DNA from: a phage | Sequence record: PX969468.1 | Reading direction: 5' to 3' (one strand) | DNA: 64,000 nucleotides | Shown here: positions 40,836 through 64,000 of the stretch, in pieces | How the letters are laid out: each line of letters opens with the position of its first letter | How positions within the stretch are numbered: position 1 is the first letter of the stretch | Position numbers and translations under genes: made by a program | The notes under the pieces: model-generated | What the model saw: only the letters and a program-made list of their open reading frames with translations | Database searches by the model: none | Told to the model about the DNA's origin: nothing

Positions 40836-41102
40836 CATTGTGGCTTCATAGAGTAATCTATGTCGAATAACCTCTTTAACTGCGGGAAGCCTAAACCTTA
40901 TGGCAAGGTAATCCGCAACGAAGCGCTCAAAAGAGCGAACGCTCAGAGGCCATTCCGAAAGGAAGTAGACCAGCAAGTGCGGTCGAAATGGGAGGATTCC
41001 TGTGGTTGCTTATCATAGGAATATGAGATGGTCCGATCCTACGTGAAAACGTATGGCTATGCACGTAATGGTGCGGGGTAGCTTAACGACCTACCTGAAC
41101 TA

Positions 41103-50639: not shown

Positions 50640-51250
50640 GGTATTTATTTTAAAATTATAAAAATTTTAGGTGATGAGGGAAAATATGTAATGGATTTTC
50701 CCTTATTTATCAGATATTTGCAGATATTTGGAAATCCTTAGAAAATCAGAAAATGGATCGAAAACTAAAATGGATTTTTCAGAGTAGGCGCGACAAGCTG
50801 AATAACTCATCCTATCGTTTGCACCATATTCCAGGCCACCATTATAGATTTCCCACACATGCTAACCTCCCTCTACTAGAACTTCCTCCACTTACCCTTG
50901 ACCTTCTATGGTAACAATCTAACCACTATCTTGAAGTTGCGGTGCAGCTTTCCAGGTACTCGATCTACTTTTCATTTCAGGGCTTGGATTTTCTGAAAAT
51001 TTTTCTCGATAAATTTCTCAGTACTCGATCTGTTTTTCGTTTTCTGAATCGGATTTTCTGGAAATCGTTCCGGATCTAGGCCTGAAATTTTTAGGGACGA
51101 AATCGATTTTTCGTTTTCAGAAATGGATTTTTAAAATTTCTATATGGGAATATTTTAGTGGATACTATTTTATAGGAAATTGTTACGGAGGGTAATTAGC
51201 GTGCTAATTAAATTTATTAAATGCGAGGAGTTCTCATTTAGAATTTTGAA
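50640..51250. repeat. AT-rich non-coding region with short direct repeats (origin-like)
   Basis: AAATGGATTTTTC / GGATTTTCTG copies, tandem CAGATATTTG x2, GTACTCGATCT x2, GATTTTTCGTTTTC x2. Confidence 0.6.
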
Positions 51251-51278
51251 TGATAATCATTCTCGTTTGCAGAATAAC

Positions 51279-51308
51279 GGGCAGGCCCGGTGATTGTCTC
51301 CCGGCCCC
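51279..51308. repeat. Left copy of 25-bp inverted repeat GGCAGGCC(C/T)GGTGATTGTCTCCC
   Basis: Matches reverse complement of 61065-61089 at 23/25 positions; partial third copy at 51419-51437. Confidence 0.7.
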
Positions 51309-51675
51309 TACTGCCCCGGCTTGTTATTATAGTAACACACAGGACAAAGAAAGCAAGAAGTTTTTGCATAAATTTTTAGACGATAATGATAATCGTTCTC
51401 ATTTCATGCAGCGCCCATCCCCGGTGGTTGTCTCCCCCGTCACCGGTGCCTGCCGTCCTTTCGATATGTATATTGTGCCACCTGGCGGGGCCGCTGTCAA
51501 CACTTTTCAAAAAATTTTTTCTAACCTGATGCGCTAACCGCTGCAACCTGGCGGGGCCAGCCTGGCAGGACCTAACTGACCAGGTAGGGGAGAATGAAGG
51601 CTTGCAAACCTGGTGGGCCTATGCTATAGGATAGGTAACAATTGAAGAGGAGGTACAAAAAATGAAAGGTAATAT

Positions 51676-51840
51676 ATGATCCCCCTGGAAAATGTAGCTA
51701 TTAATGACACTGAGGCTATCGCCCTGGTTGAAAAGGCTATGGCGGGAGCGTTGGAACATAAAGAAGAGTACGAAAAAATGATGGTTAACCTGGCAGGGGC
51801 GGCGGCTGGAGAATTCTACCCAAAAAATAATTTTAACTAA
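51676..51840 (+). CDS. Possible small protein (54 aa), below ORF-track cutoff
   Basis: ATG after GGAGG and a 5-codon leader mini-ORF. Confidence 0.3.
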   Translation: MIPLENVAINDTEAIALVEKAMAGALEHKEEYEKMMVNLAGAAAGEFYPKNNFN

Positions 51841-52674: not shown

Positions 52675-53070
52675 ATGAATAAGAACGTACGCCGCATCAT
52701 GAACGAACTGGCAAACGATGAAAAAATTATTGATATGCATTTGGTAAACATTTGCCGCCGTTGTGTAACATATAACAACCGCGCCGCAAAAGCGCGTGAG
52801 ATGAACGCAAAAGGCACCTTAAAGCCCTTTCAGGTGGTTGTAAAATCTATAACCAGTGCAGCAGGCCAGGCGCATGACCACAACAACGGGAGCACTAATA
52901 TTGATCCGTCTTACGTAATGAAACGGATCCGGACTTGCAAGAATAAAGAGCAGGTGTATAACGTCATAGATTGGCTGGACTCCCTGGGCGATGTGGTTTA
53001 TAATAGGTTTTCTGCAGCTATCGAGATCCAGCTTGACAGACTGGACGGGAAAGTACTGAAAACTTACTAA
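52675..53070 (+). CDS. Early-region protein (131 aa)
   Basis: RBS AAAGGAAAAAAG; own promoter and leader hairpin. Confidence 0.55.
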   Translation: MNKNVRRIMNELANDEKIIDMHLVNICRRCVTYNNRAAKAREMNAKGTLKPFQVVVKSITSAAGQAHDHNNGSTNIDPSYVMKRIRTCKNKEQVYNVIDWLDSLGDVVYNRFSAAIEIQLDRLDGKVLKTY

Positions 53071-53082
53071 GTTTATTTTTAG

Positions 53083-53119
53083 ATGGCCTTGACGCCAGGG
53101 CCATCAATAAAGTAAACTA
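53083..53119 (+). promoter_or_regulatory. Palindrome-embedded promoter element, copy 1
   Basis: GATGGCC-TTGACGCCAG-GGCCATC with -35 TTGACG in the centre and TAAACT at -10. Confidence 0.6.
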
Positions 53120-53149
53120 ATCCCAGTTAAGCTAAAAGGAGGCTTGAAG

Positions 53150-53269
53150 ATGAGCACTACACGCCAGCACACAAAGGTAACTATTATCGTTTGCATCATT
53201 GGTTATATCCTGGCGCAAATGTTGATGGGTAGCGCCAACGGTGTCGCAAAATTTTTCTTAAACTTTTAA
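53150..53269 (+). CDS. Possible small hydrophobic peptide (39 aa)
   Basis: ATG after AAAAGGAGG immediately downstream of palindromic promoter; TM-like core. Confidence 0.4.
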   Translation: MSTTRQHTKVTIIVCIIGYILAQMLMGSANGVAKFFLNF

Positions 53270-53324
53270 TTGACAAGCTAACTTAGATCGGTATACTAAA
53301 CACATCAACGGGAAAACTTCCCAG
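53270..53324 (+). promoter_or_regulatory. Early promoter plus 5'-leader hairpin
   Basis: TTGACA-N16-TATACT, then GGGAA-AAC-TTCCC hairpin. Confidence 0.6.
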
Positions 53325-53347
53325 AACACACAAAAGGAGAAAACACC

Positions 53348-53689
53348 ATGACCACTATGACCGCCGCAGAAAAAGCTATTCAGATCGCTGCCCTGAAAAA
53401 ACAGATCGCAGACCTTGAGAATAAGATCGATAACTTTGAAATCGACGAGGACAAGTACGACGAAAACTATGATGAATGGTTAGACGAGATCTACGGCGAA
53501 ATTATGATCGGAAACATTTCTTTTCTTCCGTCGCGTATCCTCAAGGAGCTAGATCCTATCGCTTACCGCTGCGGATTTAGCGACTACATCGACAGCCTGG
53601 ATATTGAGGACGATGAAGAATACCAGGAATTACAGACAGAGTTGGAAGAAGCAAAAGAAGAGCTTGCGGAGCTGGAAGAAAACGAGTAA
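53348..53689 (+). CDS. Early-region highly acidic protein (113 aa)
   Basis: RBS AAAGGAGA; Asp/Glu-rich throughout. Confidence 0.55.
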   Translation: MTTMTAAEKAIQIAALKKQIADLENKIDNFEIDEDKYDENYDEWLDEIYGEIMIGNISFLPSRILKELDPIAYRCGFSDYIDSLDIEDDEEYQELQTELEEAKEELAELEENE

Positions 53690-53702
53690 GATTATTTTTA
53701 GA

Positions 53703-53738
53703 TGGCCTTGACTCCAGGGCCATCAATAAAGTAAACTT
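53703..53738 (+). promoter_or_regulatory. Palindrome-embedded promoter element, copy 2
   Basis: GATGGCC-TTGACTCCAG-GGCCATC then ATAAAGTAAACT. Confidence 0.6.
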
Positions 53739-53778
53739 TATACTGTTAACACTGAACTAATGCATAGGAGTTAAAACC

Positions 53779-54024
53779 ATGGCAGCACTAATCACTAAAT
53801 ATTACGCCCCTACCAACACCAAAAGCGCCCGTATCATGGTAAAAGGCTTCGGACGTAAAAAGGTTTACACCTGGGATTATGCCTTAGACATGGAAGACAA
53901 CTACACCAACGCGATGACAGATTTTATTAATGAGCTGAACACGCGGATCTTGACAAATTATAAAATTACCGATATTGCCTATATAGGGGAAGGCGGGATC
54001 TGTTTTGTCGGTATCGTCAAATAA
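53779..54024 (+). CDS. Early-region protein (81 aa)
   Basis: RBS TAGGAG. Confidence 0.5.
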   Translation: MAALITKYYAPTNTKSARIMVKGFGRKKVYTWDYALDMEDNYTNAMTDFINELNTRILTNYKITDIAYIGEGGICFVGIVK

Positions 54025-54100
54025 ACTGTTTTTTCGGTGGTCCTGGTAGCAGGGCCATCTATAAAGATAGTTTATCAATACAATGAAAGGAGAAAGTAAC

Positions 54101-54454
54101 ATGATCAGTGGGGCAAGTTTTATTATTGGCGCTATTGCTACGGCTTTAATTGTAAACAAGATCCAATCTAAAAACGAAAAAGAGAGCAACGCGCTCACAG
54201 AATACCCATTTTGGATATTCAACGACAATGAAGACTACATTATCAAGTACAAGAATGAGAAGGGCGACCAGGTAACACCGCGACCGATCCCGGCCTACAA
54301 GATGCAAGAAACACTATACCGCCTAAAGGCTGGAGGCGCAAAAATCGTAGACTTTTGGGGATATGATTGCAAGGATCAGGAGGTTATAAAACGGCGTATC
54401 CGGGCTATTCAGGCCAATATTGAAGTTAGCAAGGGGGGAATATATGAAGATTAA
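54101..54454 (+). CDS. Early-region membrane protein (117 aa)
   Basis: ATG after AAAGGAGAAAG; N-terminal TM helix. Confidence 0.5.
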   Translation: MISGASFIIGAIATALIVNKIQSKNEKESNALTEYPFWIFNDNEDYIIKYKNEKGDQVTPRPIPAYKMQETLYRLKAGGAKIVDFWGYDCKDQEVIKRRIRAIQANIEVSKGGIYED

Positions 54455-54641
54455 TTTTGAGAAGATTGTAAAGCGATCTCATGATTCCGAAGAGCTGCCG
54501 GAACGCCGCCAGCGTAACAATAAACTGAATAAGCCAAAAAGATTTGGGAAGATCTGGCGGAATCATTATGATCGTAAATTGCCGGGCCTCCTTTTGGAAC
54601 GTGAACGGCAGGCGGAACGATACCGCCATAAAGACAAATAA
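54444..54641 (+). CDS. Early-region small basic protein (65 aa)
   Basis: ATG after AAGGGGGGAA; Arg/Lys-rich. Confidence 0.45.
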   Translation: MKINFEKIVKRSHDSEELPERRQRNNKLNKPKRFGKIWRNHYDRKLPGLLLERERQAERYRHKDK

Positions 54642-54659
54642 CAACCAACGCCCCGCCAT

Positions 54660-54689
54660 CGTGCGGGGCTTTTTATTTCTACCCTACGA
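54660..54689 (+). terminator. Intrinsic terminator
   Basis: CCCCGC-CATCGT-GCGGGG followed by CTTTTTATTT. Confidence 0.7.
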
Positions 54690-54884
54690 ATAGCGCCCCT
54701 GGTTGGCCCCACAACGCCAAAAAGGCCCCACCTATGCAATCGCCCCCCTTTAACCTGAAAACATCGCTTAGGGCCGTTTTATGGCGTTAAAAATATCATT
54801 GACAGTGATTTTATTTAAAGCTTGACATCTAAAATATTCTAGATATACTAATCACATCAAAGCGAGAAGTAAGGAGTAAACGCC

Positions 54885-55145
54885 ATGCGTAAATTAAAAA
54901 ATTTTGATAAAGTTGATATTGTCCTGAATAATTTTTACTACTGCAATAACAAGGCCGTTTGGTGGCGTGATAGTTCCACCGATAAAGTCAAGGCGCGCTT
55001 TCTCCAGGGGCACTGGCAAGGCCGCCCAGTGATTAAAATCATGGGGCAATTGGTAGCGTTTAAAAATTGCCGCCGTGTTGATGACGTTGAAGAGATTTTA
55101 AACATTTTGCGCCACAATAATTTAAAAAATAGTGTTGACAAGTAA
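54885..55145 (+). CDS. Early-region protein (86 aa)
   Basis: RBS AAGGAG; promoter-like TTGACA-N16-TATACT at 54827-54856. Confidence 0.5.
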   Translation: MRKLKNFDKVDIVLNNFYYCNNKAVWWRDSSTDKVKARFLQGHWQGRPVIKIMGQLVAFKNCRRVDDVEEILNILRHNNLKNSVDK

Positions 55146-55191
55146 ATCTCAATAAGTATAATTAAAAACACAGGCGGGAAAACTTCCCGCC
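55135..55191 (+). promoter_or_regulatory. Early promoter (overlapping upstream stop) plus leader hairpin
   Basis: TTGACA-N16-TATAAT, then GGCGGGAA-AAC-TTCCCGCC hairpin. Confidence 0.65.
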
Positions 55192-55219
55192 ACTAACAAA
55201 GAAAACAGGAGAAAATATC

Positions 55220-55843
55220 ATGACCACCGTTAACATTACCACAGGTTACAATTTAGCTTTCGACGTGCTGACCGACGAACAAAAAGAAAAAGCCGTGGAA
55301 ATGGTCCGCGAAAGAGAAGAACACAGCGGGGATAACTTTTTTGCAGAAAGTGTAATTGAGTACTATAAAGAATATATCTTTCCAGAGTACGGCCTTGAAG
55401 ATACCGATGTACATTGGTCAGGCTTTTGGTGCCAGGGTGACGGCGCGTCAATCAGTGCGGAAAACGTGGATTTAGAAAAATTCTTGCGTAAAGTCAAGTC
55501 TCTGACTAAATTCCGCTCAATTCGTCACTTGTTCGGCACAATGCACGATGGCGAGTTATCCGCAAGTGTTGAGCGTGATCCATATAGCCGCTATAGTCAC
55601 GAAAACACTGTAAACGGATACATCGATACTACATGGCTAGACCTGACCACCAAACAAGAAAACAAAGTGGAAGATCTGGAAGAGCTGATCACCGAGACGG
55701 TACGGGAGTTATCCCGCAAGGTTTACGTAGACCTGGAGGAAGCCTATCTTGAACAATTCACCGCCGAAAACTTGATCGGCCTTATCGAGGCCAATGATTG
55801 GCGGTTTGATGTCGATGAACACGGTGAGATGACTTTTTCATAA
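55220..55843 (+). CDS. Early-region acidic protein (207 aa)
   Basis: RBS CAGGAGAAAA; own promoter and leader hairpin. Confidence 0.55.
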   Translation: MTTVNITTGYNLAFDVLTDEQKEKAVEMVREREEHSGDNFFAESVIEYYKEYIFPEYGLEDTDVHWSGFWCQGDGASISAENVDLEKFLRKVKSLTKFRSIRHLFGTMHDGELSASVERDPYSRYSHENTVNGYIDTTWLDLTTKQENKVEDLEELITETVRELSRKVYVDLEEAYLEQFTAENLIGLIEANDWRFDVDEHGEMTFS

Positions 55844-55931
55844 ATAAAGTGTTGCAATAACCTAAAAACCTGCTATATTAAAACTCAAGGGGCAAGACGT
55901 TTGCCCCACACAAAACAAAGAGGTAAACATT

Positions 55932-56312
55932 ATGAAAAACACTACTAAAGCTATTGACACCGTTATGTTTAACCTGGTTACATTCCGTGAAGATATGAAA
56001 GATCTTCCACGTGAAACAGTGTGCGATCACATTGAAAACTATCGCAAACTAATCAAAGAGTTGCCTTTAAAACGTGACCAGTATGCGGCTAACGCTATGC
56101 TTAACGCCATGATCAAAAAGATGATTCAGTGTGATTTAACTCTGGCCTATGATTATGCAGGTGGTCGTTTTGCAGTATACAATCAGCCCGTGCCTGGTAT
56201 GAGCACCACCGAAGAATTGCACGCGTTAAATCTGAAACAAGATGTATGGGATAACATGCCCCGCGTGGTGGTGTGGGCAGAAAGCGGAAAGATTTACGGC
56301 GATAATTTTTAA
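55932..56312 (+). CDS. Early-region protein (126 aa)
   Basis: promoter TTGCAA-N16-TATATT upstream, hairpin GGGGCAA..TTGCCCC, RBS AGAGG. Confidence 0.55.
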   Translation: MKNTTKAIDTVMFNLVTFREDMKDLPRETVCDHIENYRKLIKELPLKRDQYAANAMLNAMIKKMIQCDLTLAYDYAGGRFAVYNQPVPGMSTTEELHALNLKQDVWDNMPRVVVWAESGKIYGDNF

Positions 56313-56376
56313 TCAGGTAACAGGCGGCATATTTGCCGCCTTATTGTTAAACAGAACTGCAAAAGAGGTACATAGA

Positions 56377-56748
56377 ATGGAATTTATTATTTTGGCTGTA
56401 GTAGTTGCCTTGTTCAACGCCTGGATCGCTGGCAAGATAGGTAGATCCGCTTTTCTATGGTTTGTTATATCTATTTTCCTGGGAGTGGTTGCAACTATTG
56501 TATTGGTTATCCTTGCAATTGTTGACAAGGGCGATAATAGAAAGGGTAAAGTGTTTTCCGACCTGTATGACGCACAAACGTTTGTCAACGCCTATTATAG
56601 TGATCTTCCAGTCTCCCTACGCTGCAGCCTGGCACAACAGGTTTTTGATGAGGCTAAAACCAGAGACCAAGCCCATGAGATATGTTTAACTGAAGCGGAT
56701 CGCCTATTTGAGAGGAATAGAAAATATGTGGACCAGCCGTTTAAATAA
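56377..56748 (+). CDS. Early-region membrane protein (123 aa)
   Basis: ATG after AGAGG; two predicted TM helices; leader hairpin GGCGGCA-TATT-TGCCGCC. Confidence 0.5.
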   Translation: MEFIILAVVVALFNAWIAGKIGRSAFLWFVISIFLGVVATIVLVILAIVDKGDNRKGKVFSDLYDAQTFVNAYYSDLPVSLRCSLAQQVFDEAKTRDQAHEICLTEADRLFERNRKYVDQPFK

Positions 56749-56947
56749 CGCCACGTTAATTAATCCCTTTAGTGAAGATTTGAAGCCAGCCGCCTGGCGT
56801 GACGGATTCAATAACGAACGCTTTATTTTCAGGCCTGATCTTGAGGAATTTTATAACAATGGATCGAACAACAGCGGAGATAATTTTTCTTGTGGTGTGC
56901 GTGGTGATAGGACTCCTGGGGGCCATTGTAAACCACGTCACCACTAA
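56726..56947 (+). CDS. Possible small protein (73 aa); alternative overlapping frame also possible
   Basis: ATG after GAGAGG; overlaps 56859-56984 frame that would encode a TM peptide. Confidence 0.3.
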   Translation: MWTSRLNNATLINPFSEDLKPAAWRDGFNNERFIFRPDLEEFYNNGSNNSGDNFSCGVRGDRTPGGHCKPRHH

Positions 56948-56967
56948 CAGGAGGGAAGGGGGAGACG

Positions 56968-57087
56968 ATGACAACCAAGGATAAGCCATGCGCTGATAAG
57001 GTGCGCCGTGTTATGGTATGGCTTGAGATTATCGCCCTTGAAATATTGTTAGGCGTAGGGATGTACTTTATCGCTGTAAGTAACTAA
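56968..57087 (+). CDS. Possible small membrane peptide (39 aa)
   Basis: ATG after AGGAGGGAAGGGGGA; hydrophobic core; terminator follows. Confidence 0.35.
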   Translation: MTTKDKPCADKVRRVMVWLEIIALEILLGVGMYFIAVSN

Positions 57088-57091
57088 GAGC

Positions 57092-57125
57092 GGCCCCCGA
57101 TCATGGGGGCCTATCTTTTAAAAAA
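57092..57125 (+). terminator. Intrinsic terminator
   Basis: GGCCCCC-GATCAT-GGGGGCC followed by TATCTTTTAAAAAATTTTTC. Confidence 0.7.
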
Positions 57126-57225
57126 TTTTTCTTCCGGGGTGTTGCAATCCGGTCCGGAATGTGGATAATAACAATCAACGGGGAGCTAATCCCCACCACC
57201 ACAAAAACCAGAAAGGAGAAACAAA

Positions 57226-57426
57226 ATGAGCAACAATATCCGCGTTATTAACTTCAAAAAAGAAGAAAAAATTGCCGTGCTGATTGACGGTCAAGAAATC
57301 TTCAAGGGCGACTATGAAGATCATCAAACGGCGATTAGTATCACTCGCGTGATTGGTTATCATAATTTCTACCCCCAAGGCGCTGAGGCAGCAGTTAAAC
57401 GAATCAAAGAGATTGTAGGCCTGTAA
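57226..57426 (+). CDS. Early-region protein (66 aa)
   Basis: promoter TTGCAA-N17-GATAAT upstream, hairpin GGGGA..TCCCC, RBS AAGGAGA. Confidence 0.5.
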   Translation: MSNNIRVINFKKEEKIAVLIDGQEIFKGDYEDHQTAISITRVIGYHNFYPQGAEAAVKRIKEIVGL

Positions 57427-57438
57427 AATTTATTTTTA

Positions 57439-57475
57439 GATGGCCTTGACTTCAGGGCCATCGATAAAGTAAATT
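57439..57475 (+). promoter_or_regulatory. Palindrome-embedded promoter element, copy 3
   Basis: GATGGCC-TTGACTTCAG-GGCCATC then GATAAAGTAAATT. Confidence 0.6.
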
Positions 57476-57510
57476 TAAACCCTGTTAAAATACCACGCAG
57501 TTAACAAGGA

Positions 57511-57819
57511 GTGATAGACATGTTTATCCAGGCTAATAATCTTTATTTCTTTGATGGTCAGATCGTAGATGGTGTGGAAGTGGAGATCACCGGGTGCCCT
57601 GGCGGTCAGGCTATGACTTTTCGGAATAATGCCTTTGATGATTCTCATATCGTTATGAGAATGGAAGTTACGAAGCTGGACGACAAGAAAACACTTATTG
57701 ACTATTCTGTGAAAGATCATCCAGACTACCGCATGATCCATGGTGATTTGTGCATTGTTGACCGTGACAAGGTGGGCGGCATTGTGATCGCTATTGTGAA
57801 CGATGTTTTCTCAAACTAA
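57511..57819 (+). CDS. Early-region protein (102 aa)
   Basis: RBS AAGGAG. Confidence 0.5.
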   Translation: MIDMFIQANNLYFFDGQIVDGVEVEITGCPGGQAMTFRNNAFDDSHIVMRMEVTKLDDKKTLIDYSVKDHPDYRMIHGDLCIVDRDKVGGIVIAIVNDVFSN

Positions 57820-57836
57820 TTTCAGCAGGCGATTTT

Positions 57837-58187
57837 ATGAAAGTCAAACTATATTACCTTAATGAGCTTAACCCCCTTGCCCAGGTCCGCGCCCTAGCTA
57901 ATACCTTGATTTGTGAGAAATCTGTATATTGTGTTGAGCTTAACGCCATGCGTGAACGTCTCAAAGGTGGTTACTTTGACATCCATGCTGCAATCAACGG
58001 CCTGAATATGGAATTTATACGCTTACGTAACAGCCGCCGGAATCTGGCAAGAATGGAACAAGATCCGGCCCACCTTCGTAAGCTGGTTATTGAAAATCAT
58101 CTGATGTTTAATGCCGAGGGTGATTATTACCATTTTCACCGCAAACGCTGGTACCGTGGCGGCAATACAGGCAAGAATGCAAAATAA
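57837..58187 (+). CDS. Early-region protein (116 aa)
   Basis: ORF; weak RBS. Confidence 0.45.
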   Translation: MKVKLYYLNELNPLAQVRALANTLICEKSVYCVELNAMRERLKGGYFDIHAAINGLNMEFIRLRNSRRNLARMEQDPAHLRKLVIENHLMFNAEGDYYHFHRKRWYRGGNTGKNAK

Positions 58188-58222
58188 GGCCCCTAGCAGG
58201 GCCTGCAGCAATATAATCACAT

Positions 58223-58255
58223 AAAGGCCATGCGGTTGCATGGCCTTTATTATTT
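58223..58255 (+). terminator. Intrinsic terminator
   Basis: AAAGGCCATGC-GGTT-GCATGGCCTTT followed by ATTATTTTGG. Confidence 0.7.
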
Positions 58256-58389
58256 TGGCGTTACAACGGCATACGGGGCGCTTAAAAAATTTTTAAAGAA
58301 GTACTTGCATCATTCCCGACAATATGGATAATAAGAGTTGTCGAGGGGGAGGCCCCCAATCGTTGACCAGATAGATAGGAGTTAAAATC

Positions 58390-58674
58390 ATGGCTATTGT
58401 TACCGCTGGCGATGTAGTAGAAATGGAAGCAAAATACTTAAAAGCGGGTATGCACATCCTACGGAATGATCAAGAGTTATTATTAACGATGGTTGACTAT
58501 AATCACGGCCAGGATTATCCAAGCATCGACTACTTTTTTGAGTATGTTGATGAAGAGTTGAAAGAGGATGAGGCCTATTGCGGTGAGTTCTGCAACTTCT
58601 TTTGTCCTGATGAGGTTGTAAAGGTTATTTATCAACCTGGCGTAGCTTTCCCGCTGCACGCTATCAATAAATAA
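58390..58674 (+). CDS. Early-region acidic protein (94 aa)
   Basis: promoter TTGCAT-N17-GATAAT upstream, hairpin GGGGG-AGG-CCCCC, RBS TAGGAG. Confidence 0.5.
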   Translation: MAIVTAGDVVEMEAKYLKAGMHILRNDQELLLTMVDYNHGQDYPSIDYFFEYVDEELKEDEAYCGEFCNFFCPDEVVKVIYQPGVAFPLHAINK

Positions 58675-58729
58675 ACCTGGCGGGGCCGAAAAGGCCCCCA
58701 ATTATGAAAATAAAGAGAGGCAAATCATC

Positions 58730-58963
58730 ATGATGGAACAAATTAAACGCGCCGAGGCTATTAATGGCAACGTGATCTATTTTGTCAGCAAAAACGAAAA
58801 AGGCGTACCATATGCGGCAGTAATAGTACAACCTGACGGCGATTATTGGTTTACTGTGTACGGCACTTATTCTTTTGGGCGTCCAGTGCATGATAAAATT
58901 TTGAAAGTAGCGAACCCTACCGGGAAGAATATCACAGCAGAAAAATTTTTTGAAAATAGTTGA
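58730..58963 (+). CDS. Early-region protein (77 aa)
   Basis: RBS AGAGAGG. Confidence 0.5.
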   Translation: MMEQIKRAEAINGNVIYFVSKNEKGVPYAAVIVQPDGDYWFTVYGTYSFGRPVHDKILKVANPTGKNITAEKFFENS

Positions 58964-59038
58964 CATGACCATATAAGACTGTAATATATAAATCAAAGGG
59001 GGCAACGAACCCCACCAACTACAAAGAGGATAAAAATC

Positions 59039-59218
59039 ATGGCTATTATTGCAAAGACTGAGATCGTAGGCTTAGATTCTATTCTCCTCGCATATGAGGA
59101 AGCTATAGAAATGTATGTGGTTTCCTATGGTGAGTATATCCGTGAATATAAATCTATTGATCTGGCTTTTGAATGTTATATCCGCCAGGTTAATAAAGCG
59201 TACGATGATTATCGTTAA
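59039..59218 (+). CDS. Possible early-region protein (59 aa), below ORF-track cutoff
   Basis: promoter TTGACA-N16-TAATAT at 58968, leader hairpin, RBS AGAGGA. Confidence 0.4.
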   Translation: MAIIAKTEIVGLDSILLAYEEAIEMYVVSYGEYIREYKSIDLAFECYIRQVNKAYDDYR

Positions 59219-59224
59219 AATAGT

Positions 59225-59253
59225 TTGACAACAGCCATCTTACAAAGCATAAT
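59225..59253 (+). promoter_or_regulatory. sigma70-like early promoter
   Basis: TTGACA, 17-nt spacer, CATAAT; followed by GGCGG..CCGCC leader hairpin. Confidence 0.6.
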
Positions 59254-59305
59254 ACATAAGGCGGTGGAATGGTCCGCCACCTGGAACAAAGAAGAGGTAA
59301 ACACC

Positions 59306-59551
59306 ATGAAAAGCAATAAAGGTTATAACGGTTACAAAAACAAAACTCATTGGAATGTAAGCCTTTGGATTAATAACGATGAGTCATTGTACCGGTTGGC
59401 CCAAGGCTTTATTAACGCCAATGCTAATCGTAATGATGCGGCGCGGGATATGATGCTTTTTCTGGAGCTAACCGGACAAGATAAGACCCCGGACGGCTTC
59501 AAGTACAGCACTACGGCGATCCGTGCCGCGATGGTTGGAATGAAACACTAA
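59306..59551 (+). CDS. Early-region protein (81 aa)
   Basis: ATG after AGAAGAGG; track ORF start 59225 lies in promoter. Confidence 0.5.
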   Translation: MKSNKGYNGYKNKTHWNVSLWINNDESLYRLAQGFINANANRNDAARDMMLFLELTGQDKTPDGFKYSTTAIRAAMVGMKH

Positions 59552-59628
59552 AAGCACATAGCTGCCTTACCCTGGGGCTGTGGTAGCGGCCCCATGAATA
59601 AGGTTACTAACAGAAGAGAATAAACACC

Positions 59629-59733
59629 ATGAAACAGAAATTAATCGATGCAGTGATCTTGGTTATTGCCCTGGGTATTGGCCTGATTGCAACCATGTCT
59701 AATATGATCTTGTCTTCCAACGGTATCGGGTGA
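59629..59733 (+). CDS. Possible small membrane peptide (34 aa)
   Basis: ATG after AGAAGAG; hydrophobic core. Confidence 0.3.
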   Translation: MKQKLIDAVILVIALGIGLIATMSNMILSSNGIG

Positions 59734-59742
59734 GGTTGGCAA

Positions 59743-59958
59743 ATGATCACTAACAAAACAGGCAAAACGGAATTTTTACGCAACTTACAGATCGGCAAGC
59801 CTGAGATCTGGTACTGCACTAAAACACCGCGTGACGAAATGAAAGACTTCACCGCCACGCTGCAACGGGTAAAGATATCTATCACGCAGAAAAAGGCCTT
59901 ACTAGTGGTGGAAGGGGAGATCCCCCAAACCGTTGTTATAGTTGAGCGTACAGCATAG
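59743..59958 (+). CDS. Early-region protein (71 aa)
   Basis: RBS GAGGTTGG. Confidence 0.45.
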   Translation: MITNKTGKTEFLRNLQIGKPEIWYCTKTPRDEMKDFTATLQRVKISITQKKALLVVEGEIPQTVVIVERTA

Positions 59959-60049
59959 TTTAATTTATACAGATACCTGAAAATTAACCAACAAAGCATA
60001 AACAGGCGGTTACCGCCGCCTTAAACGTAGCAGAAAGAGGATAGACACA

Positions 60050-60334
60050 ATGAAAAAGATGATCGCAGTGGTTACCCTGGTTGTTGGACTTAATGCGCCT
60101 GTAATGGCTAAAGAGCTGGCAAAAGAGGTTAATCTAACGGATATTCATGCCGTCAATCAAATCGGGGTTACTTATCGCTTATGCCTTGCCGCTAAAACTT
60201 TTAAGGACGGCACAACAGAGTACTACGGATTCGAGGGTATCCGGTGCGGTGAGCTTGCTCGCGACCTTAAGGAAGATCCAGACCTGGAGGATCTGCCCAT
60301 AACCGTGAACGGGAAAACTTACGTGAACCGTTAA
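60050..60334 (+). CDS. Early-region secreted protein (94 aa)
   Basis: signal-peptide-like N-terminus (MKKMIAVVTLVVGLNAPVMA); RBS AGAGGA; leader hairpin GGCGG-TTA-CCGCC. Confidence 0.5.
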   Translation: MKKMIAVVTLVVGLNAPVMAKELAKEVNLTDIHAVNQIGVTYRLCLAAKTFKDGTTEYYGFEGIRCGELARDLKEDPDLEDLPITVNGKTYVNR

Positions 60335-60336
60335 CC

Positions 60337-60471
60337 ATGAGAAAGATAATTATTACCATGGGGATCGTGGCGGCAATGTTGGCGATCTTTCCCTTTATGG
60401 TTAGGTATGTGCTGATTAATGTTGTCCTGGTAGTCAGCGATCTGGTGTTATATATTAACTCATTGTTTTAG
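60337..60471 (+). CDS. Possible small membrane peptide (44 aa)
   Basis: ATG 2 nt after upstream stop; hydrophobic. Confidence 0.3.
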   Translation: MRKIIITMGIVAAMLAIFPFMVRYVLINVVLVVSDLVLYINSLF

Positions 60472-60479
60472 GCGCGATA

Positions 60480-60671
60480 ATGACAGCGGAAGAAGTTAAA
60501 AAAGTACTGGCGGTACTGCGTTATCATAATCATTGCAAGGTGAAGAATGATCCTGATTATCTTGATTCATCCCTTGAAGAGGATACACTACAAGCCATAA
60601 GCAACATGCAAGAATTGCTTAAGCGTATGACAGAGAAAAACCGACCGGACTACATAGGGGGTAAAATATGA
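60480..60671 (+). CDS. Early-region protein (63 aa)
   Basis: ORF. Confidence 0.4.
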   Translation: MTAEEVKKVLAVLRYHNHCKVKNDPDYLDSSLEEDTLQAISNMQELLKRMTEKNRPDYIGGKI

Positions 60672-60979
60672 TCGCTATTACGCCAACCGTTTTAGATTGG
60701 TATCGGCAACGCATAGCGCCTCCGCTGGCTATCTTCAAAGATGCGGAAGCAAAACAACGCCGGATCTCAATACATGAGATCATCAACCTTAACGCTGGAG
60801 GCACACCATACCGCCCAGGACCTGGCCGTGAGATGGACAATACATTGGCGATCCTGAAGATACGCCGTAAACGGTCCTCCCTTACGCTGGATTCATTACA
60901 CACAATGCAGTCTCCGTTCCAGGTGACTGGGAAACGGATCGCCAGGTCCTGGACAAAGGCCAATGACCGGACCGTATAA
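60668..60979 (+). CDS. Early-region protein (103 aa)
   Basis: RBS AGGGGG; ATGA overlap with upstream gene. Confidence 0.45.
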   Translation: MIAITPTVLDWYRQRIAPPLAIFKDAEAKQRRISIHEIINLNAGGTPYRPGPGREMDNTLAILKIRRKRSSLTLDSLHTMQSPFQVTGKRIARSWTKANDRTV

Positions 60980-61064
60980 ATAAAAAGTGTTTTGGTACTG
61001 ATTTTGGGGTTGACTTGTTCGGCCCCTTTTGCTATTCTTATTAAACGGGCGGCACTTGGGAACA

Positions 61065-61089
61065 GGGGGAGACAATCACCAGGCCTGCC
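61065..61089. repeat. Right copy (inverted) of 25-bp repeat GGCAGGCC(C/T)GGTGATTGTCTCCC
   Basis: GGGGGAGACAATCACCAGGCCTGCC is the reverse complement of the 51279-51308 core. Confidence 0.7.
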
Positions 61090-62376: not shown

Positions 62377-62403
62377 GGGGCTTTAAAAGGCCCCTTTCTT
62401 TTT
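62377..62403 (+). terminator. Intrinsic terminator closing the small-gene block
   Basis: GGGGCT-TTAAAA-GGCCCC followed by TTTCTTTTTG. Confidence 0.7.
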
Positions 62404-63020
62404 GTCTGTATTTCTCCTACCACAAACGGCCCAGCCTGGCAAGTGGAATAATTGACTAGCCATCAATCCCACACACTGTACAAATATACATGGAAAATAA
62501 CTATTGCATAATCTTTCATTGTGTGGTAGCAGGGACATTTTTACCCGTTTTCTCTCCCAAAAGTGCACGTAATGCCGCTATTGCACAAATTTTAACCTGA
62601 TGCACATCTCCAATATCTTGTCAACAACTAAAAATCTTTATAAGTCATACACTTACACAACATCGAAAGCGTGTCCTACGCGAAAAATCGAGTATAACTA
62701 TAGCCGCCAAATCTCAGAATTCACGTACGCACGCCATTCTATAGCCTGCAAAGTATTTATTCCAACCACAGAATAACGGAATAGTCAATACCTGCATAAA
62801 ATAATTATTCGTGTAAACTGCATAACATAAATCCGCTCAGGTGTCAACATTTTTCGTAAACAGTCCGAAATTATCACGATGAGTTATCATAAACAAAGAA
62901 ATCTTTAGTCGTCTAATGTTTACTGTACATTACTATACTGACTGGAATCATTAGATGACTAAGAGAAAGATAAGGAATAATTAACAATGTAAGTATTTTA
63001 CCTGCAACAATAAGGCAACT

Positions 63021-63040
63021 ATGCAAACGAATGGCATGGC
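63021..63040. repeat. 20-bp direct repeat, copy 1
   Basis: ATGCAAACGAATGGCATGGC; second copy at 63325-63344 with one mismatch. Confidence 0.7.
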
Positions 63041-63053
63041 GCGACGGAGTCGC

Positions 63054-63205
63054 GACATAATATAAAAGCAGTAACAATCACCCCCGTGATAGTTTTTCTG
63101 CAATCTATTATTCAGATCATAGTTGCCTTGTATCCAGTTAATCATGACATAATAAGCAAGGCAACTATAGATCTGATAATAGTTGCCCTGCTTTTATATT
63201 ATGTC
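63054..63205. repeat. Perfect 18-bp inverted repeat pair enclosing AAGGCAACTAT sites
   Basis: GACATAATATAAAAGCAG (63054-63071) and CTGCTTTTATATTATGTC (63188-63205); four AAGGCAACTAT-like copies between 63011 and 63190 in both orientations. Confidence 0.75.
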
Positions 63206-63256
63206 ATAGAAACGCCCGAAGGGGTGACCTAGTCACCTGGCATAGCCAGCGAAAGA

Positions 63257-63320
63257 TTATTAACTTGTTAATCGTCAGCTTGTTGGCTGTTAGCTTGTCA
63301 ATTGTTAACTTGTTAATTGT
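63257..63320. repeat. Iteron array 1 (4 x about 15 bp, TTAACTTGTTAAT-like)
   Basis: TTAACTTGTTAATCG, TCAGCTTGTTGGCTG, TTAGCTTGTCAATTG, TTAACTTGTTAATTG in tandem. Confidence 0.7.
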
Positions 63321-63324
63321 TTTC

Positions 63325-63344
63325 ATGCAAACGAATGTCATGGC
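63325..63344. repeat. 20-bp direct repeat, copy 2
   Basis: ATGCAAACGAATGTCATGGC. Confidence 0.7.
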
Positions 63345-63356
63345 TTATCATATCTG

Positions 63357-63432
63357 TGTAAACTGTCAAGGTGTAAACTATCCAGGCGTAAACAGTCTAT
63401 GCGGGAACAATCTATACGTGAACAGTGAAACA
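63357..63432. repeat. Iteron array 2 (5 x about 15 bp, GTAAAC-N3-TC-like)
   Basis: GTGTAAACTGTCAAG, GTGTAAACTATCCAG, GCGTAAACAGTCTAT, GGGAACAATCTATAC, GTGAACAGTGAAACA. Confidence 0.7.
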
Positions 63433-63453
63433 TGAAATAATAACAGTCGTTAT

Positions 63454-63545
63454 TGTGTCGAAAGTGTATAAAGTGTCAGATTATGGCATATTGTGTGACA
63501 TTGTGTCAAAGGTAAAAGTGTCAAAAGTGGCAAAAGTGTCAGACA
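63454..63545. repeat. Iteron array 3 (about 8 x 10 bp, AAGTGTCA-like)
   Basis: TTGTGTCGAA, AAGTGTATAA, AAGTGTCAGA, TTGTGTGACA, TTGTGTCAAA, AAGTGTCAAA, AAGTGGCAAA, AAGTGTCAGA at about 10-bp period. Confidence 0.7.
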
Positions 63546-64000
63546 AGTTTTTCTCCTCTTTGTCAAGTGCTGCATGAAAAATTTACAAACTGGTATGGTA
63601 GCATTTTTGCGGCCCTGTTTACATTCAGGAGTGTATGTATAACCCTTGTTGTGTGGGCGTTTAGACGTCTGGACGGTCAGAAGTCCGCAGGTTAATATCT
63701 AATCTATTGGTCGCTAACTATATCCCCCACAAATAATAAGAAATGCAATTGTTATGTGCGTAAACAGTGACTCATGTTATCAATCCCTGTATGTATCGCC
63801 AGTGGTGCGCATAATGGGTATTATGTTAAATTGCCCGTAATGATAACTATTCTCACAATGATAGGTATTCTCATTCAACCCCGCAAAACAGGTTGCAAAT
63901 GTTGTGCCACTGTGTGAACGGCCTCACCTATTAATCTGCCTCACTGCCCCGATATTTGAGAATTGTTATAAGAATGAGAAGTATTCCCATTTCGTCCGCC

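Follow-up and report, generated by a model that had tools for sequence, protein, structure and literature searches.

We read five small open reading frames in the early-type block of this phage genome as probably genuine, lineage-restricted early accessory genes for small proteins, four of them encoding membrane peptides that would act as modulators, with a sixth frame as a remnant. The window, a 64,000-nt stretch of phage record PX969468.1, belongs to Vequintavirus (rV5-like coliphages), and its block shares 98.8% identity with phage A6-1 and 98.3% with MaxTheCat, likewise a Vequintavirus. All six ORFs listed by the initial annotation are present as given, at 51676–51840, 53150–53269, 56968–57087, 59039–59218, 59629–59733, and 60337–60471, each running from an ATG start through the stop codon and encoding 54, 39, 39, 59, 34, and 44 aa, respectively. 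Below, ORFs are named by their first position, and every feature lies on the + strand.

The description of these ORFs as unannotated is valid just for the 60-aa ORF track from which it was made; public records already carry them. In a profile search, all six matched PHROG families end to end (PHROGs 16391, 13629, 9374, 14631, 16005, and 21957), and all six are annotated coding sequences in MaxTheCat. The type phage rV5 (NC_011041) annotates five, namely gp188/ORF193 (53150), gp176/ORF181 (56968), gp169/ORF174 (59039), gp168/ORF173 (59629), and gp165/ORF170 (60337), and Table S3 of the rV5 paper lists four of the five as “membrane protein, 1 TMD” (Kropinski et al. 2013, PMC3606486). Order and lengths of these five genes are alike in rV5 and the window, with the exception of the ORF173 call. 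Public protein sets contain five of the sequences exactly, with contig counts from 3 to 629 and the maximum for 59039. Annotation is uneven among GenBank records, and the nearest relative, A6-1, lacks calls for 59629 and 60337. We claim no novelty for the set, since five of the ORFs are catalogued small phage genes that a close relative could do without in a laboratory transposon screen, and the sixth survives only as a frameshifted remnant.

Gene status follows from conservation, as ORF length was mostly not significant in a shuffle test, in which four ORFs gave P values of 0.10–0.18, 59039 gave 0.02, and 60337 gave 0.003. Across 11 to 15 relatives, five ORFs are conserved in length and in their start and stop; the start codon is ATG, apart from a single GTG locus for 59629 and another for 60337. 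Substitutions in these five cluster at third codon positions, and nonsynonymous changes are depleted: 53150 has 16 synonymous versus 10 nonsynonymous changes (P = 6e-6, omega about 0.16), 59039 has 27 versus 11 (P = 7e-11, omega about 0.11), and depletion is also seen for 56968 (P = 0.004), 59629 (P = 4e-4, omega about 0.37), and 60337 (P = 0.04, omega about 0.63, marginally under neutral), so that omega spans 0.11–0.63 over the conserved ORFs. The counts are small because the relatives compared are close, mostly 87–99% identical. For all conserved ORFs, the pN/pS minimum falls in the assigned frame; the codon-usage score is positive in that frame only, and replacements retain hydropathy in an amino-acid substitution test. 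Among 8 to 14 haplotypes, no indels fall inside the five ORFs, with indels present in the flanking spacers. Frame loss in relatives, which the initial annotation had named as evidence against coding, was found for 51676, in several relatives; the other five keep their frame. Mass spectrometry of rV5 sampled virions only.

The exception, 51676–51840, derives by 5′ truncation from a 58-aa gene (orthologue bas54_0103) and matches positions 5–56 of the 56-position phrog_21957 profile with an E value of 6e-33. As read from the sequence, the region 51647–51679 holds a Shine-Dalgarno (SD) sequence, GAGGAGG (51647–51653), and a five-codon mini-ORF (51662–51679, MKGNI and a stop) whose stop codon shares nucleotides with the ATG that opens the 54-aa ORF (ATATGA). 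The strong SD (duplex energy −13.3) serves ATG 51662, which is out of frame with the 51676 ORF; in A6-1 and Bas54, the counterpart of this ATG is in frame and yields a 58-aa protein. At this site, the window contains one additional A and one additional AT, and none of 101 phage records matched the stretch at >95%. The SD-linked start is out of frame through a 2-nt insertion private to the window genome, and this copy of the gene is frameshifted at codon 5. The frame is also disrupted in relatives, including rV5, by single-base A-run indels and longer out-of-frame deletions, and the exact 54-aa form was not found among public proteins.

Of the conserved genes, 53150 (phrog_16391) follows a promoter/stem-loop cassette (53068–53118), one of four copies in the block of a repeat that we call D1. 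Repeat analysis and a promoter scan (53089–53118) placed a hairpin, GATGGCC..GGCCATC, around the −35 element TTGACG, followed by the −10 element TAAACT (53113–53118). The SD AGGAGG (53137–53142) and a 7-nt spacer lead into the ORF, the two together covering 53137–53269, and the peptide consists of an N-terminal tail, MSTTRQHTK, a helix at residues 10–27, and the tail SANGVAKFFLNF. Length, start, and stop are equal in all 12 other loci compared. Directly at the end of its stop begins a sigma-70-type promoter (53270–53297, TTGACA-16-TATACT, 11/12 match; annotated as P192 in rV5), so that, with the cassette upstream, 53150–53269 forms a promoter-flanked single-gene unit. The second 39-aa peptide, 56968, is the third and final gene of a unit headed by a 123-aa protein with two transmembrane (TM) segments. 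Two SDs, AGGAGGG (56949–56955) and GGGGGAG (56958–56964), precede it (56949–57087 in all), and it is predicted to be tail-anchored, with a basic N-terminal tail and a helix, MVWLEIIALEILLGVGMYFIAV, that holds two Glu residues. Residues 16–37 are invariant in eight haplotypes, the five variable nucleotides are all synonymous, and both Glu are retained in the sole distant homologue found, P0128 (63% identity). An intrinsic-terminator-like hairpin, GGCCCCCGATCATGGGGGCC, of eight pairs, seven of them GC, followed by a T-run (57092–57121), closes this unit; the terminator scan found it, and the Murica annotation also carries a terminator here.

The 59039 gene, which occurs also in Phapecoctavirus and is missing from SYGMH1, would yield an acidic soluble 59-aa protein, as its sequence indicates. 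Its region (58960–59218) comprises a promoter (58960–58987), a leader hairpin (58999–59013), the SD GAGGA (59026–59030), and the ORF. Adjoining the end of the ORF, the promoter scan found a sigma-70-type promoter (59225–59253, TTGACA-17-CATAAT, 11/12 match) that starts a unit reaching the terminator-like hairpin at 61006–61026 (terminator scan and unit map), which closes the unit holding 59629–59733 and 60337–60471. A DUF7249 gene has been inserted upstream of 59629 in the window's lineage. The 34-aa peptide of 59629–59733 consists of MKQK, a helix at residues 5–23, and the uncharged tail SNMILSSNGIG, and the SD of the following 71-aa gene (59743–59958) contains the stop codon of 59629. Two alleles have divergent N-terminal halves, yet both preserve the tail TM(A/S)N(M/V)ILSS(N/H)GIG as well as peptide length and hydrophobicity. 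The start is ATG, and GTG in A6-1; rV5 calls ORF173 as 46 aa from an upstream ATG in the leader hairpin, and the conserved ATG gives 34 aa.

The ATG of 60337–60471 lies 2 nt downstream of the stop of a 94-aa gene (60050–60334; phrog_9845, orthologue bas54_0127), whose translation begins with a signal-peptide-like segment, MKKMIAVVTLVVGLNAPVMA, and whose AF2 model (pLDDT 78.6) had no fold match in the PDB. Most of the loci compared, Phapecoctavirus among them, have the 94-aa gene directly before the 44-aa ORF; the 94-aa gene is missing from SYGMH1. The 44-aa peptide is very hydrophobic (GRAVY 1.80) and is modeled by AF2 as a single continuous helix over residues 2–43 (pLDDT 95.6). It is 44 aa long in 14 of 15 sequences (the window and 14 loci), the odd one being V18, where it is fused to the next gene; Murica lacks the gene. 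Replacements keep hydropathy (P = 0.004), and just 14 clusters make up the family, every one from rV5-like or Phapecoctavirus-like phages. Pfam DUF7396 (46 aa) aligns end to end with 60337 and with 9 of 12 scanned family members, with a best score of 16 bits, below the curated cut-off of 27, and this similarity may be just shared hydrophobic composition.

The initial annotation had described all six products as hydrophobic, which fits 53150, 56968, 59629, and 60337 (top 19-residue Kyte-Doolittle windows 2.08 to 2.56) and does not fit 59039 (GRAVY 0.05) or 51676 (−0.12). The same four are predicted to be single-helix membrane-type peptides, in line with its mention of several single-TM products. 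All four begin with a short, positively charged N-terminus and end in a C-terminal tail that is short and uncharged or almost absent, so that by the positive-inside rule inner-membrane insertion with a cytoplasmic N-terminus is expected. Good SD spacing, also ascribed to the whole set, was found for 53150, 56968, and 59039, with anti-SD duplex energies of −11.6, −10.8, and −5.8 kcal/mol. The SD is weak for 59629 (−2.9, near the random-position mean of −2.4), absent for 60337 (+0.3), and, for 51676 (−3.9), linked to the out-of-frame ATG.

The block has the character of an early region, as had been proposed: the promoter scan placed near-consensus sigma-70 promoters, nearly all on the + strand, before almost every gene. 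Promoters flank the ORFs, terminators delimit units, promoter/stem-loop cassettes recur between genes, and gene content differs among close relatives (losses of 60337 and 59039, gain of DUF7249). In transposon sequencing of the close relative Bas54 on E. coli K-12, with orthologues confirmed through position and sequence, the counterparts of all six ORFs tolerate insertions. Those of 53150 (bas54_0107, 6/6 TA sites), 56968 (bas54_0117, 11/11), 59039 (bas54_0123, 22/22), and 60337 (bas54_0128, 8/9) are non-essential, that of 59629 (bas54_0125, 7/9) is scored “Reduced fitness,” and that of 51676 (bas54_0103, 12/14 hit) “Intermediate.” In a clinical isolate, insertions in bas54_0123–0129, a run that starts at the promoter preceding 59039 and includes the 59629 and 60337 orthologues, were depleted about 4- to 7-fold (bas54_0123, log2FC −2.85, adjusted p 0.0012), which would fit a value that depends on the host. 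This uniform seven-gene depletion may instead be a polar effect on a single downstream gene, with no role for the small peptides, and its host is ambiguous because the supplementary sheets of two isolates carry identical numbers in the copy used.

Most likely, the four peptides are accessory inner-membrane modulators expressed early from sigma-70 promoters. Host RNA polymerase would read the ORFs from these promoters soon after infection, and the peptides would enter the inner membrane with their N-termini in the cytoplasm. There they could serve as small modulators, binding host envelope proteins or phage-encoded neighbors through helix-helix contacts or short periplasmic tails. Any benefit would be confined to some hosts, with growth on E. 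coli K-12 independent of the peptides, which would be neither lysis nor killing factors. No homology to proteins of known function was found for the peptides, searches of Pfam, NCBIfam, and PADLOC gave no sequence match to known exclusion, toxin, holin, or defense families, and the literature searched offered nothing on superinfection exclusion or membrane perturbation by these peptides.

It is conceivable, though unlikely, that the peptides, possibly with the secreted 94-aa neighbor, block DNA entry of later phages at the inner membrane or periplasm, in the manner of T4 Imm and Sp. Superinfection exclusion would suit the early-type promoters, the predicted inner-membrane location, the signal-peptide protein directly upstream of 60337 in most relatives, and dispensability in single infection of K-12. 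However, Pfam, NCBIfam, and PADLOC gave no similarity to Imm or other exclusion families, and exclusion leaves the depletion in single-phage competition on the clinical isolate unexplained, though that signal may be polar; we know of no exclusion phenotype for these peptides. We doubt still more that they are membrane-perturbing toxins or lysis-timing factors, such as Hok/TisB-like depolarizing peptides, holins, or antiholins. In size and hydrophobicity they are similar to type I toxins, and 56968, with two conserved acidic residues in its helix, follows the 2-TM protein that some records name “putative holin.” Yet models of Hok, Ldr, Ibs, TisB, and holins remained unmatched at E values up to 1, the C-termini are uncharged, unlike those of holins, the genes lie behind strong early-type promoters outside the endolysin lysis cassette (the rV5 endolysin is Gp89), and insertions are tolerated in the “putative holin” as well as in every peptide gene. 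That the ORFs are chance open frames in spacers, conserved via promoters, leaders, or terminators, is the least probable reading: nonsignificant length for four of six, the lack of a good SD for 59629 and 60337, ORFs left uncalled in several GenBank records, and a 51676 frame truly broken here and in many relatives would fit it, but the other five combine third-position substitutions and nonsynonymous depletion with indel-free frames next to indel-bearing spacers, starts that swap only to other start codons, and codon usage fitting the assigned frame alone.

For the preferred role as accessory inner-membrane modulators, the bacterial single-pass regulators AcrZ (49 aa), MgrB (47 aa), MgtS (31 aa), and SgrT (43 aa), which bind larger membrane proteins, offer a comparison. 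The phage peptides share their 30–50 aa and single helix, and binding a partner in this way is the mode we infer here; they differ in being phage-encoded and without homology to these regulators (NCBIfam, E up to 1), and to our knowledge no binding partners of the phage peptides are known. T4 Imm (83 aa, two TM segments) and Sp are membrane proteins, made early, that keep superinfecting T-even phages out. As predicted for the peptides, they are small and early, reside at the inner membrane or in the periplasm, and are not required in single infection, but there is no sequence similarity, and the peptides are half the size of Imm with a single helix. At the level of the block, the hyperplastic regions of T4-type phages, where small ORFan genes are flanked by promoter-early/stem-loop cassettes (PeSLs), provide a further parallel (Arbiol et al. 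2010, PMC2839356; Comeau et al. 2014, PMC4122927). [quoted passage not shown]

The six tiny ORFs lie exactly where the initial annotation had placed them, at 51676–51840 (54 aa), 53150–53269 (39 aa), 56968–57087 (39 aa), 59039–59218 (59 aa), 59629–59733 (34 aa), and 60337–60471 (44 aa), and each starts with ATG; we refer to them by start coordinate. Over the stretch 53000–60600, identity is 98.8% to Escherichia phage A6-1 and 98.3% to both MaxTheCat (Bas57) and several O177 phages; these phages all belong to Vequintavirus, the genus of rV5-like myoviruses. In total, 291 phage records match this stretch, with more distant, partial matches in Phapecoctavirus and related genera. Some 20 GenBank records labeled "Campylobacter phage" (MG0656xx, Campylobacter jejuni) also show ~94–95% identity to the E. 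coli phage block, and these are probably mislabeled or represent coliphage contaminants of those preparations.

The description of the six ORFs as unannotated does not survive comparison with public data, which hold PHROG families, rV5 and MaxTheCat CDS, a 2013 table, and exact sequences for these genes. Each ORF gave a whole-profile match to a PHROG of unknown function, and the matches to PHROGs 16391, 13629, 9374, 14631, and 16005 were full-length, with every profile position covered (E 8e-23 to 6.5e-39). Annotated maps of rV5, MaxTheCat, and Bas54 (MaxBurger), together with pairwise comparison, placed the rV5-type small early genes in the same position and order as in rV5 and Bas54. All six carry CDS annotation in MaxTheCat, five are annotated in rV5 (gp188, gp176, gp169, gp168, and gp165), and three are labeled "putative membrane protein" in phage I29. 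Table S3 of Kropinski et al. 2013 (PMC3606486) describes ORF193, ORF181, ORF173, and ORF170 as "membrane protein, 1 TMD" by TMHMM and Phobius. Exact sequences of five of the ORFs were found in a public protein collection, on 117, 96, 68, 629, and 3 contigs. Public annotation of these phages is inconsistent for genes <45 aa: the A6-1 record lacks annotation of 59629 and 60337, the Murica record lacks that of 53150, and 60337 is left uncalled in many records. The six ORFs are ordinary: annotations, membrane-protein labels, family-database entries, and an essentiality screen already exist for these genes. Their orthologues entered GenBank with the rV5 genome, and the finding matters little as it stands, though a 60-aa ORF cutoff conceals about a fifth of the genes in the early block.

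Comparing the window with 15 related loci, we conclude from patterns of sequence change that 53150, 56968, 59039, 59629, and 60337 are protein-coding. ORF length was not beyond chance expectation from shuffles for four of the six (P 0.10–0.18), with lower P values for 59039 (0.02) and 60337 (0.003). Conservation of the reading frame in relatives, which the initial annotation had proposed as a check, was found among the 15 loci for these five ORFs and was not found for 51676, where indels in relatives break the frame. Wherever the gene is present, the five keep an identical length and stop, with the exception of 60337 in V18, and their start codon is ATG, apart from a GTG at one locus for 59629 and at one for 60337. 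No indels fall inside them among the related loci compared, whereas the flanking spacers do carry indels. Against a neutral expectation that 75–80% of distinct single-base changes would be nonsynonymous, we counted 16 synonymous and 10 nonsynonymous changes in 53150 (P = 6e-6, omega ~0.16), 10 and 9 in 56968 (P = 0.004, omega ~0.26), 27 and 11 in 59039 (P = 7e-11, omega ~0.11), 24 and 27 in 59629 (P = 4e-4, omega ~0.37), and 26 and 51 in 60337 (P = 0.04, omega ~0.63). For every ORF, the annotated frame had the lowest pairwise pN/pS, and it alone had positive codon-usage scores. Despite the high omega of 60337, its replacements keep hydropathy more than random nonsynonymous changes do (P = 0.004). 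Residues 16–37 of 56968, which form its helix, are invariant, with five variable nucleotides, all synonymous. An exhaustive HMMER search with 56968 over 1.84 billion representatives returned only one other protein, at 63% identity, in which both intramembrane Glu residues are retained. There are two alleles of 59629. Most nucleotide positions in the N-terminal half differ between them, and each is 34 codons long and encodes a hydrophobic core together with the tail TM(A/S)N(M/V)ILSS(N/H)GIG.

To assess translation signals, anti-SD duplex energies were scored upstream of each start, with 23 larger neighboring genes (average −7.1) and random positions (−2.4) as references. The good SD spacing ascribed to all six ORFs was borne out for 53150 (−11.6 kcal/mol, AGGAGG with a 7-nt spacer), 56968 (−10.8 kcal/mol, strong), and 59039 (−5.8 kcal/mol, moderate), but not for the other three. 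The value for 59629, −2.9 kcal/mol, is at the level of random positions. No SD precedes 60337 (+0.3 kcal/mol), whose ATG lies 2 nt past the stop of the 94-aa gene at 60050–60334, so any translation of it must be coupled. For 51676 the energy is −3.9 kcal/mol, and the strong GAGGAGG nearby (−13.3) belongs to an out-of-frame ATG at 51662.

The ORF at 51676 is a private frameshift variant. Its relatives encode a 58-aa protein that begins with MEGN or MKGN from an SD-linked ATG, corresponding to phrog_21957 and bas54_0103; in the window this SD-linked frame is not intact, and ATG 51676 encodes only profile positions 5–56. At 51636–51715 the window carries an additional A ahead of the SD-linked ATG and, past codon 4, an inserted AT; the latter puts ATG 51662 out of frame and thereby disables the SD-linked start. 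What ATG 51662 opens instead is a five-codon frame, MKGNI*, whose TGA overlaps ATG 51676. Both indels are private to this genome (shared by 0 of 101 matching phage records) and reflect either a real pseudogenizing mutation or sequencing error in short repeats. Out-of-frame indels also occur in the gene in relatives, some of them single bases in A-runs, and the rV5 sequence carries several frameshifts within its homologue.

Hydrophobicity had likewise been ascribed to all six ORFs, and by best 19-residue hydropathy and GRAVY this was upheld for 53150 (2.08 and 0.82, respectively), 56968 (2.15 and 0.66), 59629 (2.55 and 1.28), and 60337 (2.56 and 1.80), but not for 59039 (1.41 and 0.05) or 51676 (0.78 and −0.12). 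The same four contain the one hydrophobic stretch of ~18 or more residues expected of a single-pass peptide. That several of the ORFs encode single-TM peptides is thus supported for four by hydropathy, in keeping with the "1 TMD" calls for rV5 orthologues and with a single AlphaFold2 helix for 60337, which runs continuously over residues 2–43 (pLDDT 95.6). The N-terminal tails of the four carry two to three net positive charges and the short C-terminal tails at most one charge, which by the positive-inside rule suggests an N-in orientation. For the 94-aa neighbor of 60337, predicted to be secreted, AlphaFold2 produced a model of moderate quality, and a fold search with it against the PDB returned no match (best E 0.07, TM <0.36).

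A promoter scan placed a near-consensus sigma-70 promoter on the + strand before almost every gene between 51.6 and 62.4 kb. It returned 43 promoter-like sites against 28 expected, the best matches being nearly all on the + strand, and, over both strands together, a terminator scan returned 27 terminator-like hairpins where 12 were expected, of which a handful lie on the + strand. By these predictions, 53150 and 59039 are single-gene units with promoters either side (53089–53118 and 53270–53297; 58960–58987 and 59225–59253), 56968 is the last of three genes in a unit closed by a terminator at 57092–57111, and 59629 and 60337 share a unit that runs from 59225 to a terminator at 61006–61026. A 51-nt cassette occurs in four copies (53068–53118, 53687–53737, 54022–54072, and 57425–57475), each with a T-rich run, a hairpin GATGGCC..GGCCATC that encloses the −35 element TTGAC, and the −10 element TAAACT, in that order.

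Gene content in the block varies among close relatives, with genes gained, lost, or replaced: Murica has no 60337, V18 has it fused to the following gene, SYGMH1 has no 59039, and in the lineage of the window an inserted DUF7249 gene separates 59629 from the leader. A 61-aa ORF in an alternative frame, starting with GTG and encoding a membrane-like segment (AEIIFLVVCVVIGLLGAIV), lies at 56799–56984, where it overlaps the 73-aa gene at 56726–56947 as well as the beginning of 56968; in some records the ORF annotated there is instead on the minus strand. In three Phapecoctavirus-like loci (L010, L014, and L015), the equivalent block has other, non-homologous tail-anchored peptides of 31–39 aa, such as the 39-aa MSKYTVEYTVENPAVSEGKKMTFAISIIAFVVTILSIIL and the 31-aa MINKENSLTVGTINAIILAVPFWVVVAVIIF, and tiny membrane peptides are therefore recurrent in such regions.

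Fitness data for the orthologues come from transposon sequencing of the Vequintavirus Bas54 (MZ501093) in a 2025 HIDEN-SEQ preprint (doi 10.1101/2025.11.20.689424), and orthology to the six ORFs was confirmed by position and sequence. In the reference library on K-12, all six tolerate insertions. The orthologues of 53150 (bas54_0107, 6/6 TA sites), 56968 (bas54_0117, 11/11), 59039 (bas54_0123, 22/22), and 60337 (bas54_0128, 8/9) are classed as Non-essential, that of 59629 (bas54_0125, 7/9) as Reduced fitness, and that of 51676 (bas54_0103, 12/14) as Intermediate. When K-12 was compared with a clinical isolate in the same preprint, bas54_0123 to bas54_0129 were uniformly depleted (log2FC −2.1 to −2.9; adjusted p 0.0012 for 0123, 0.018 for 0126, 0.025 for 0127, 0.095 for 0128, and 0.24 for 0125), while the two genes just upstream of bas54_0123 were not. 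The depleted block corresponds to the stretch from the promoter before 59039 to just short of the terminator at 61006–61026. This depletion may be polarity on one downstream gene and so is not assignable to the small peptides. In the copy of Extended Data Table 8 that we used, the CFE303 and CFE311 sheets are numerically identical, which makes the host of these values uncertain; depletion of the MoxR gene and bas54_0140 suggests CFE311. Directly upstream of 53150, a 131-aa gene (52675–53070) is identical at 130 of 131 residues to bas54_0106, which is non-essential in K-12 and shows strong depletion when K-12 is compared with the clinical isolate (log2FC −3.18, adjusted p ~0), making it a candidate host-specific or counter-defense gene.

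An ORF-poor stretch at 50950–51540 has 6.5–7.7% variable columns across six Vequintavirus genomes, compared with 26–55% in its flanks, and its variable sites show no codon-position bias. It contains three repeats of ~65–74 nt and two Fur-box-like sequences, one of which (51382–51400) matches GATAATGATAATCATTATC at all but 2 positions; no such site is expected by chance. In Bas54, two ORFs are called over the equivalent stretch: bas54_0101, hit at 0/11 TA sites, was classed as "Essential," and bas54_0102, hit at 5/15, as "Strong fitness defect" (doi 10.1101/2025.11.20.689424). As their translations look non-protein-like, the stretch seems more likely to hold an essential cis-acting element or RNA than to encode proteins. 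Three copies of a 14-nt motif, GGTGRTTGTCTCCC (0.06 expected), lie in GC-rich surroundings at 51289–51302 (+), 51423–51436 (+), and 61067–61080 (−), one of them inverted just downstream of a promoter-like site. Structured RNA at these sites was set aside with unconvincing folding z-scores of −0.4 to −2.0, and Rfam returned nothing there; bas54_0130, the ORF called over the third copy, was "Intermediate" in the transposon screen. At 62400–64000 the GC content is 0.39 and there are no ORFs of at least 62 aa, with 15-nt tandem repeats at 63256–63426 and a tandem pair of Fur-box-like sequences at 63839–63872. The + strand at 40820–41055 carries a group I intron by Rfam (RF00028), its 64.7 bits exceeding the gathering score; in the rV5 paper (Kropinski et al. 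2013, PMC3606486), an intron within a TerL gene comes up in the lysis section.

In searches of Pfam, NCBIfam, and PADLOC, neither the six peptides nor their neighbors matched any family whose function is known. Homologues, searched for in the case of 59629 with its 46-aa rV5 form, are confined to rV5-like phages, with those of 59039, 59629, and 60337 also found in Phapecoctavirus-like phages. Pfam DUF7396 was rejected for 60337, with 16.1 bits (E 0.013) against a 27-bit gathering threshold; the best member of the 60337 family reached E 0.0042. A literature search on the early genes of Vequintavirus found no transcriptomic, ribosome-profiling, or proteomic data, and CRISPRi-ART on the relative EdH4 covers capsid and rII genes only.

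The reading that best fits these data is that the peptides are accessory inner-membrane microproteins, which would be made early and would modulate envelope proteins with an effect that depends on the host. Superinfection exclusion by the peptides is possible, though it lacks specific support; searches of Pfam, NCBIfam, and PADLOC at E up to 1 placed none of the peptides in a described exclusion family (T4 Imm/Sp and similar). Membrane toxicity is possible on the same footing, again with no specific support; type I toxin models (Hok/Gef, Ldr, Ibs, and TisB) gave no hits in Pfam or NCBIfam. A role as holins is unlikely, given the early setting in a sigma-70 promoter block and not a lysis cassette or late context, the uncharged or nearly uncharged C-termini (SN, SSNGIG, YINSLF, and the 53150 tail AKFFLNF with one Lys), and the dispensability of the Bas54 orthologues, whose insertions in K-12 argue, indirectly and from a relative, against a requirement for lysis. 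Although the gene preceding 56968 is annotated "putative holin," a holin/antiholin role for 56968 was rejected as both genes are insertion-tolerant and the setting is early. Kropinski et al. 2013 (PMC3606486) give the rV5 lysin as Gp89, encoded elsewhere in the genome.

A further and rather doubtful proposal is that the unit at 58960–61026, with 59039, 59629, and 60337, forms a host-specific envelope or counter-defense module in which the tiny helices anchor or partner the proteins of adjacent genes. Here, 59629 would pair with the 71-aa protein encoded at 59743–59958, and the secreted 94-aa protein with 60337. Such a module would explain the ~4- to 7-fold depletion of the Bas54 block in a uropathogenic isolate and not in K-12. 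If the peptides carry the host-dependent fitness effect that the unit shows in Bas54, they would be simple phage membrane microproteins that tune host range or counter defense, activities that to our knowledge are documented for very few phage proteins of such size.

In its organization, though not by homology, and with cassettes that here are consensus matches only, the predicted promoter and stem-loop arrangement of the block recalls the PeSL (promoter-early/stem-loop) cassettes of hyperplastic regions in T4-type phages (PMC2839356). Like the PeSL ORFans, the ORFs in this block are small and non-essential, are flanked by repeated promoter/stem-loop elements (the D1 and D2 repeat families), and are shuffled among close relatives.
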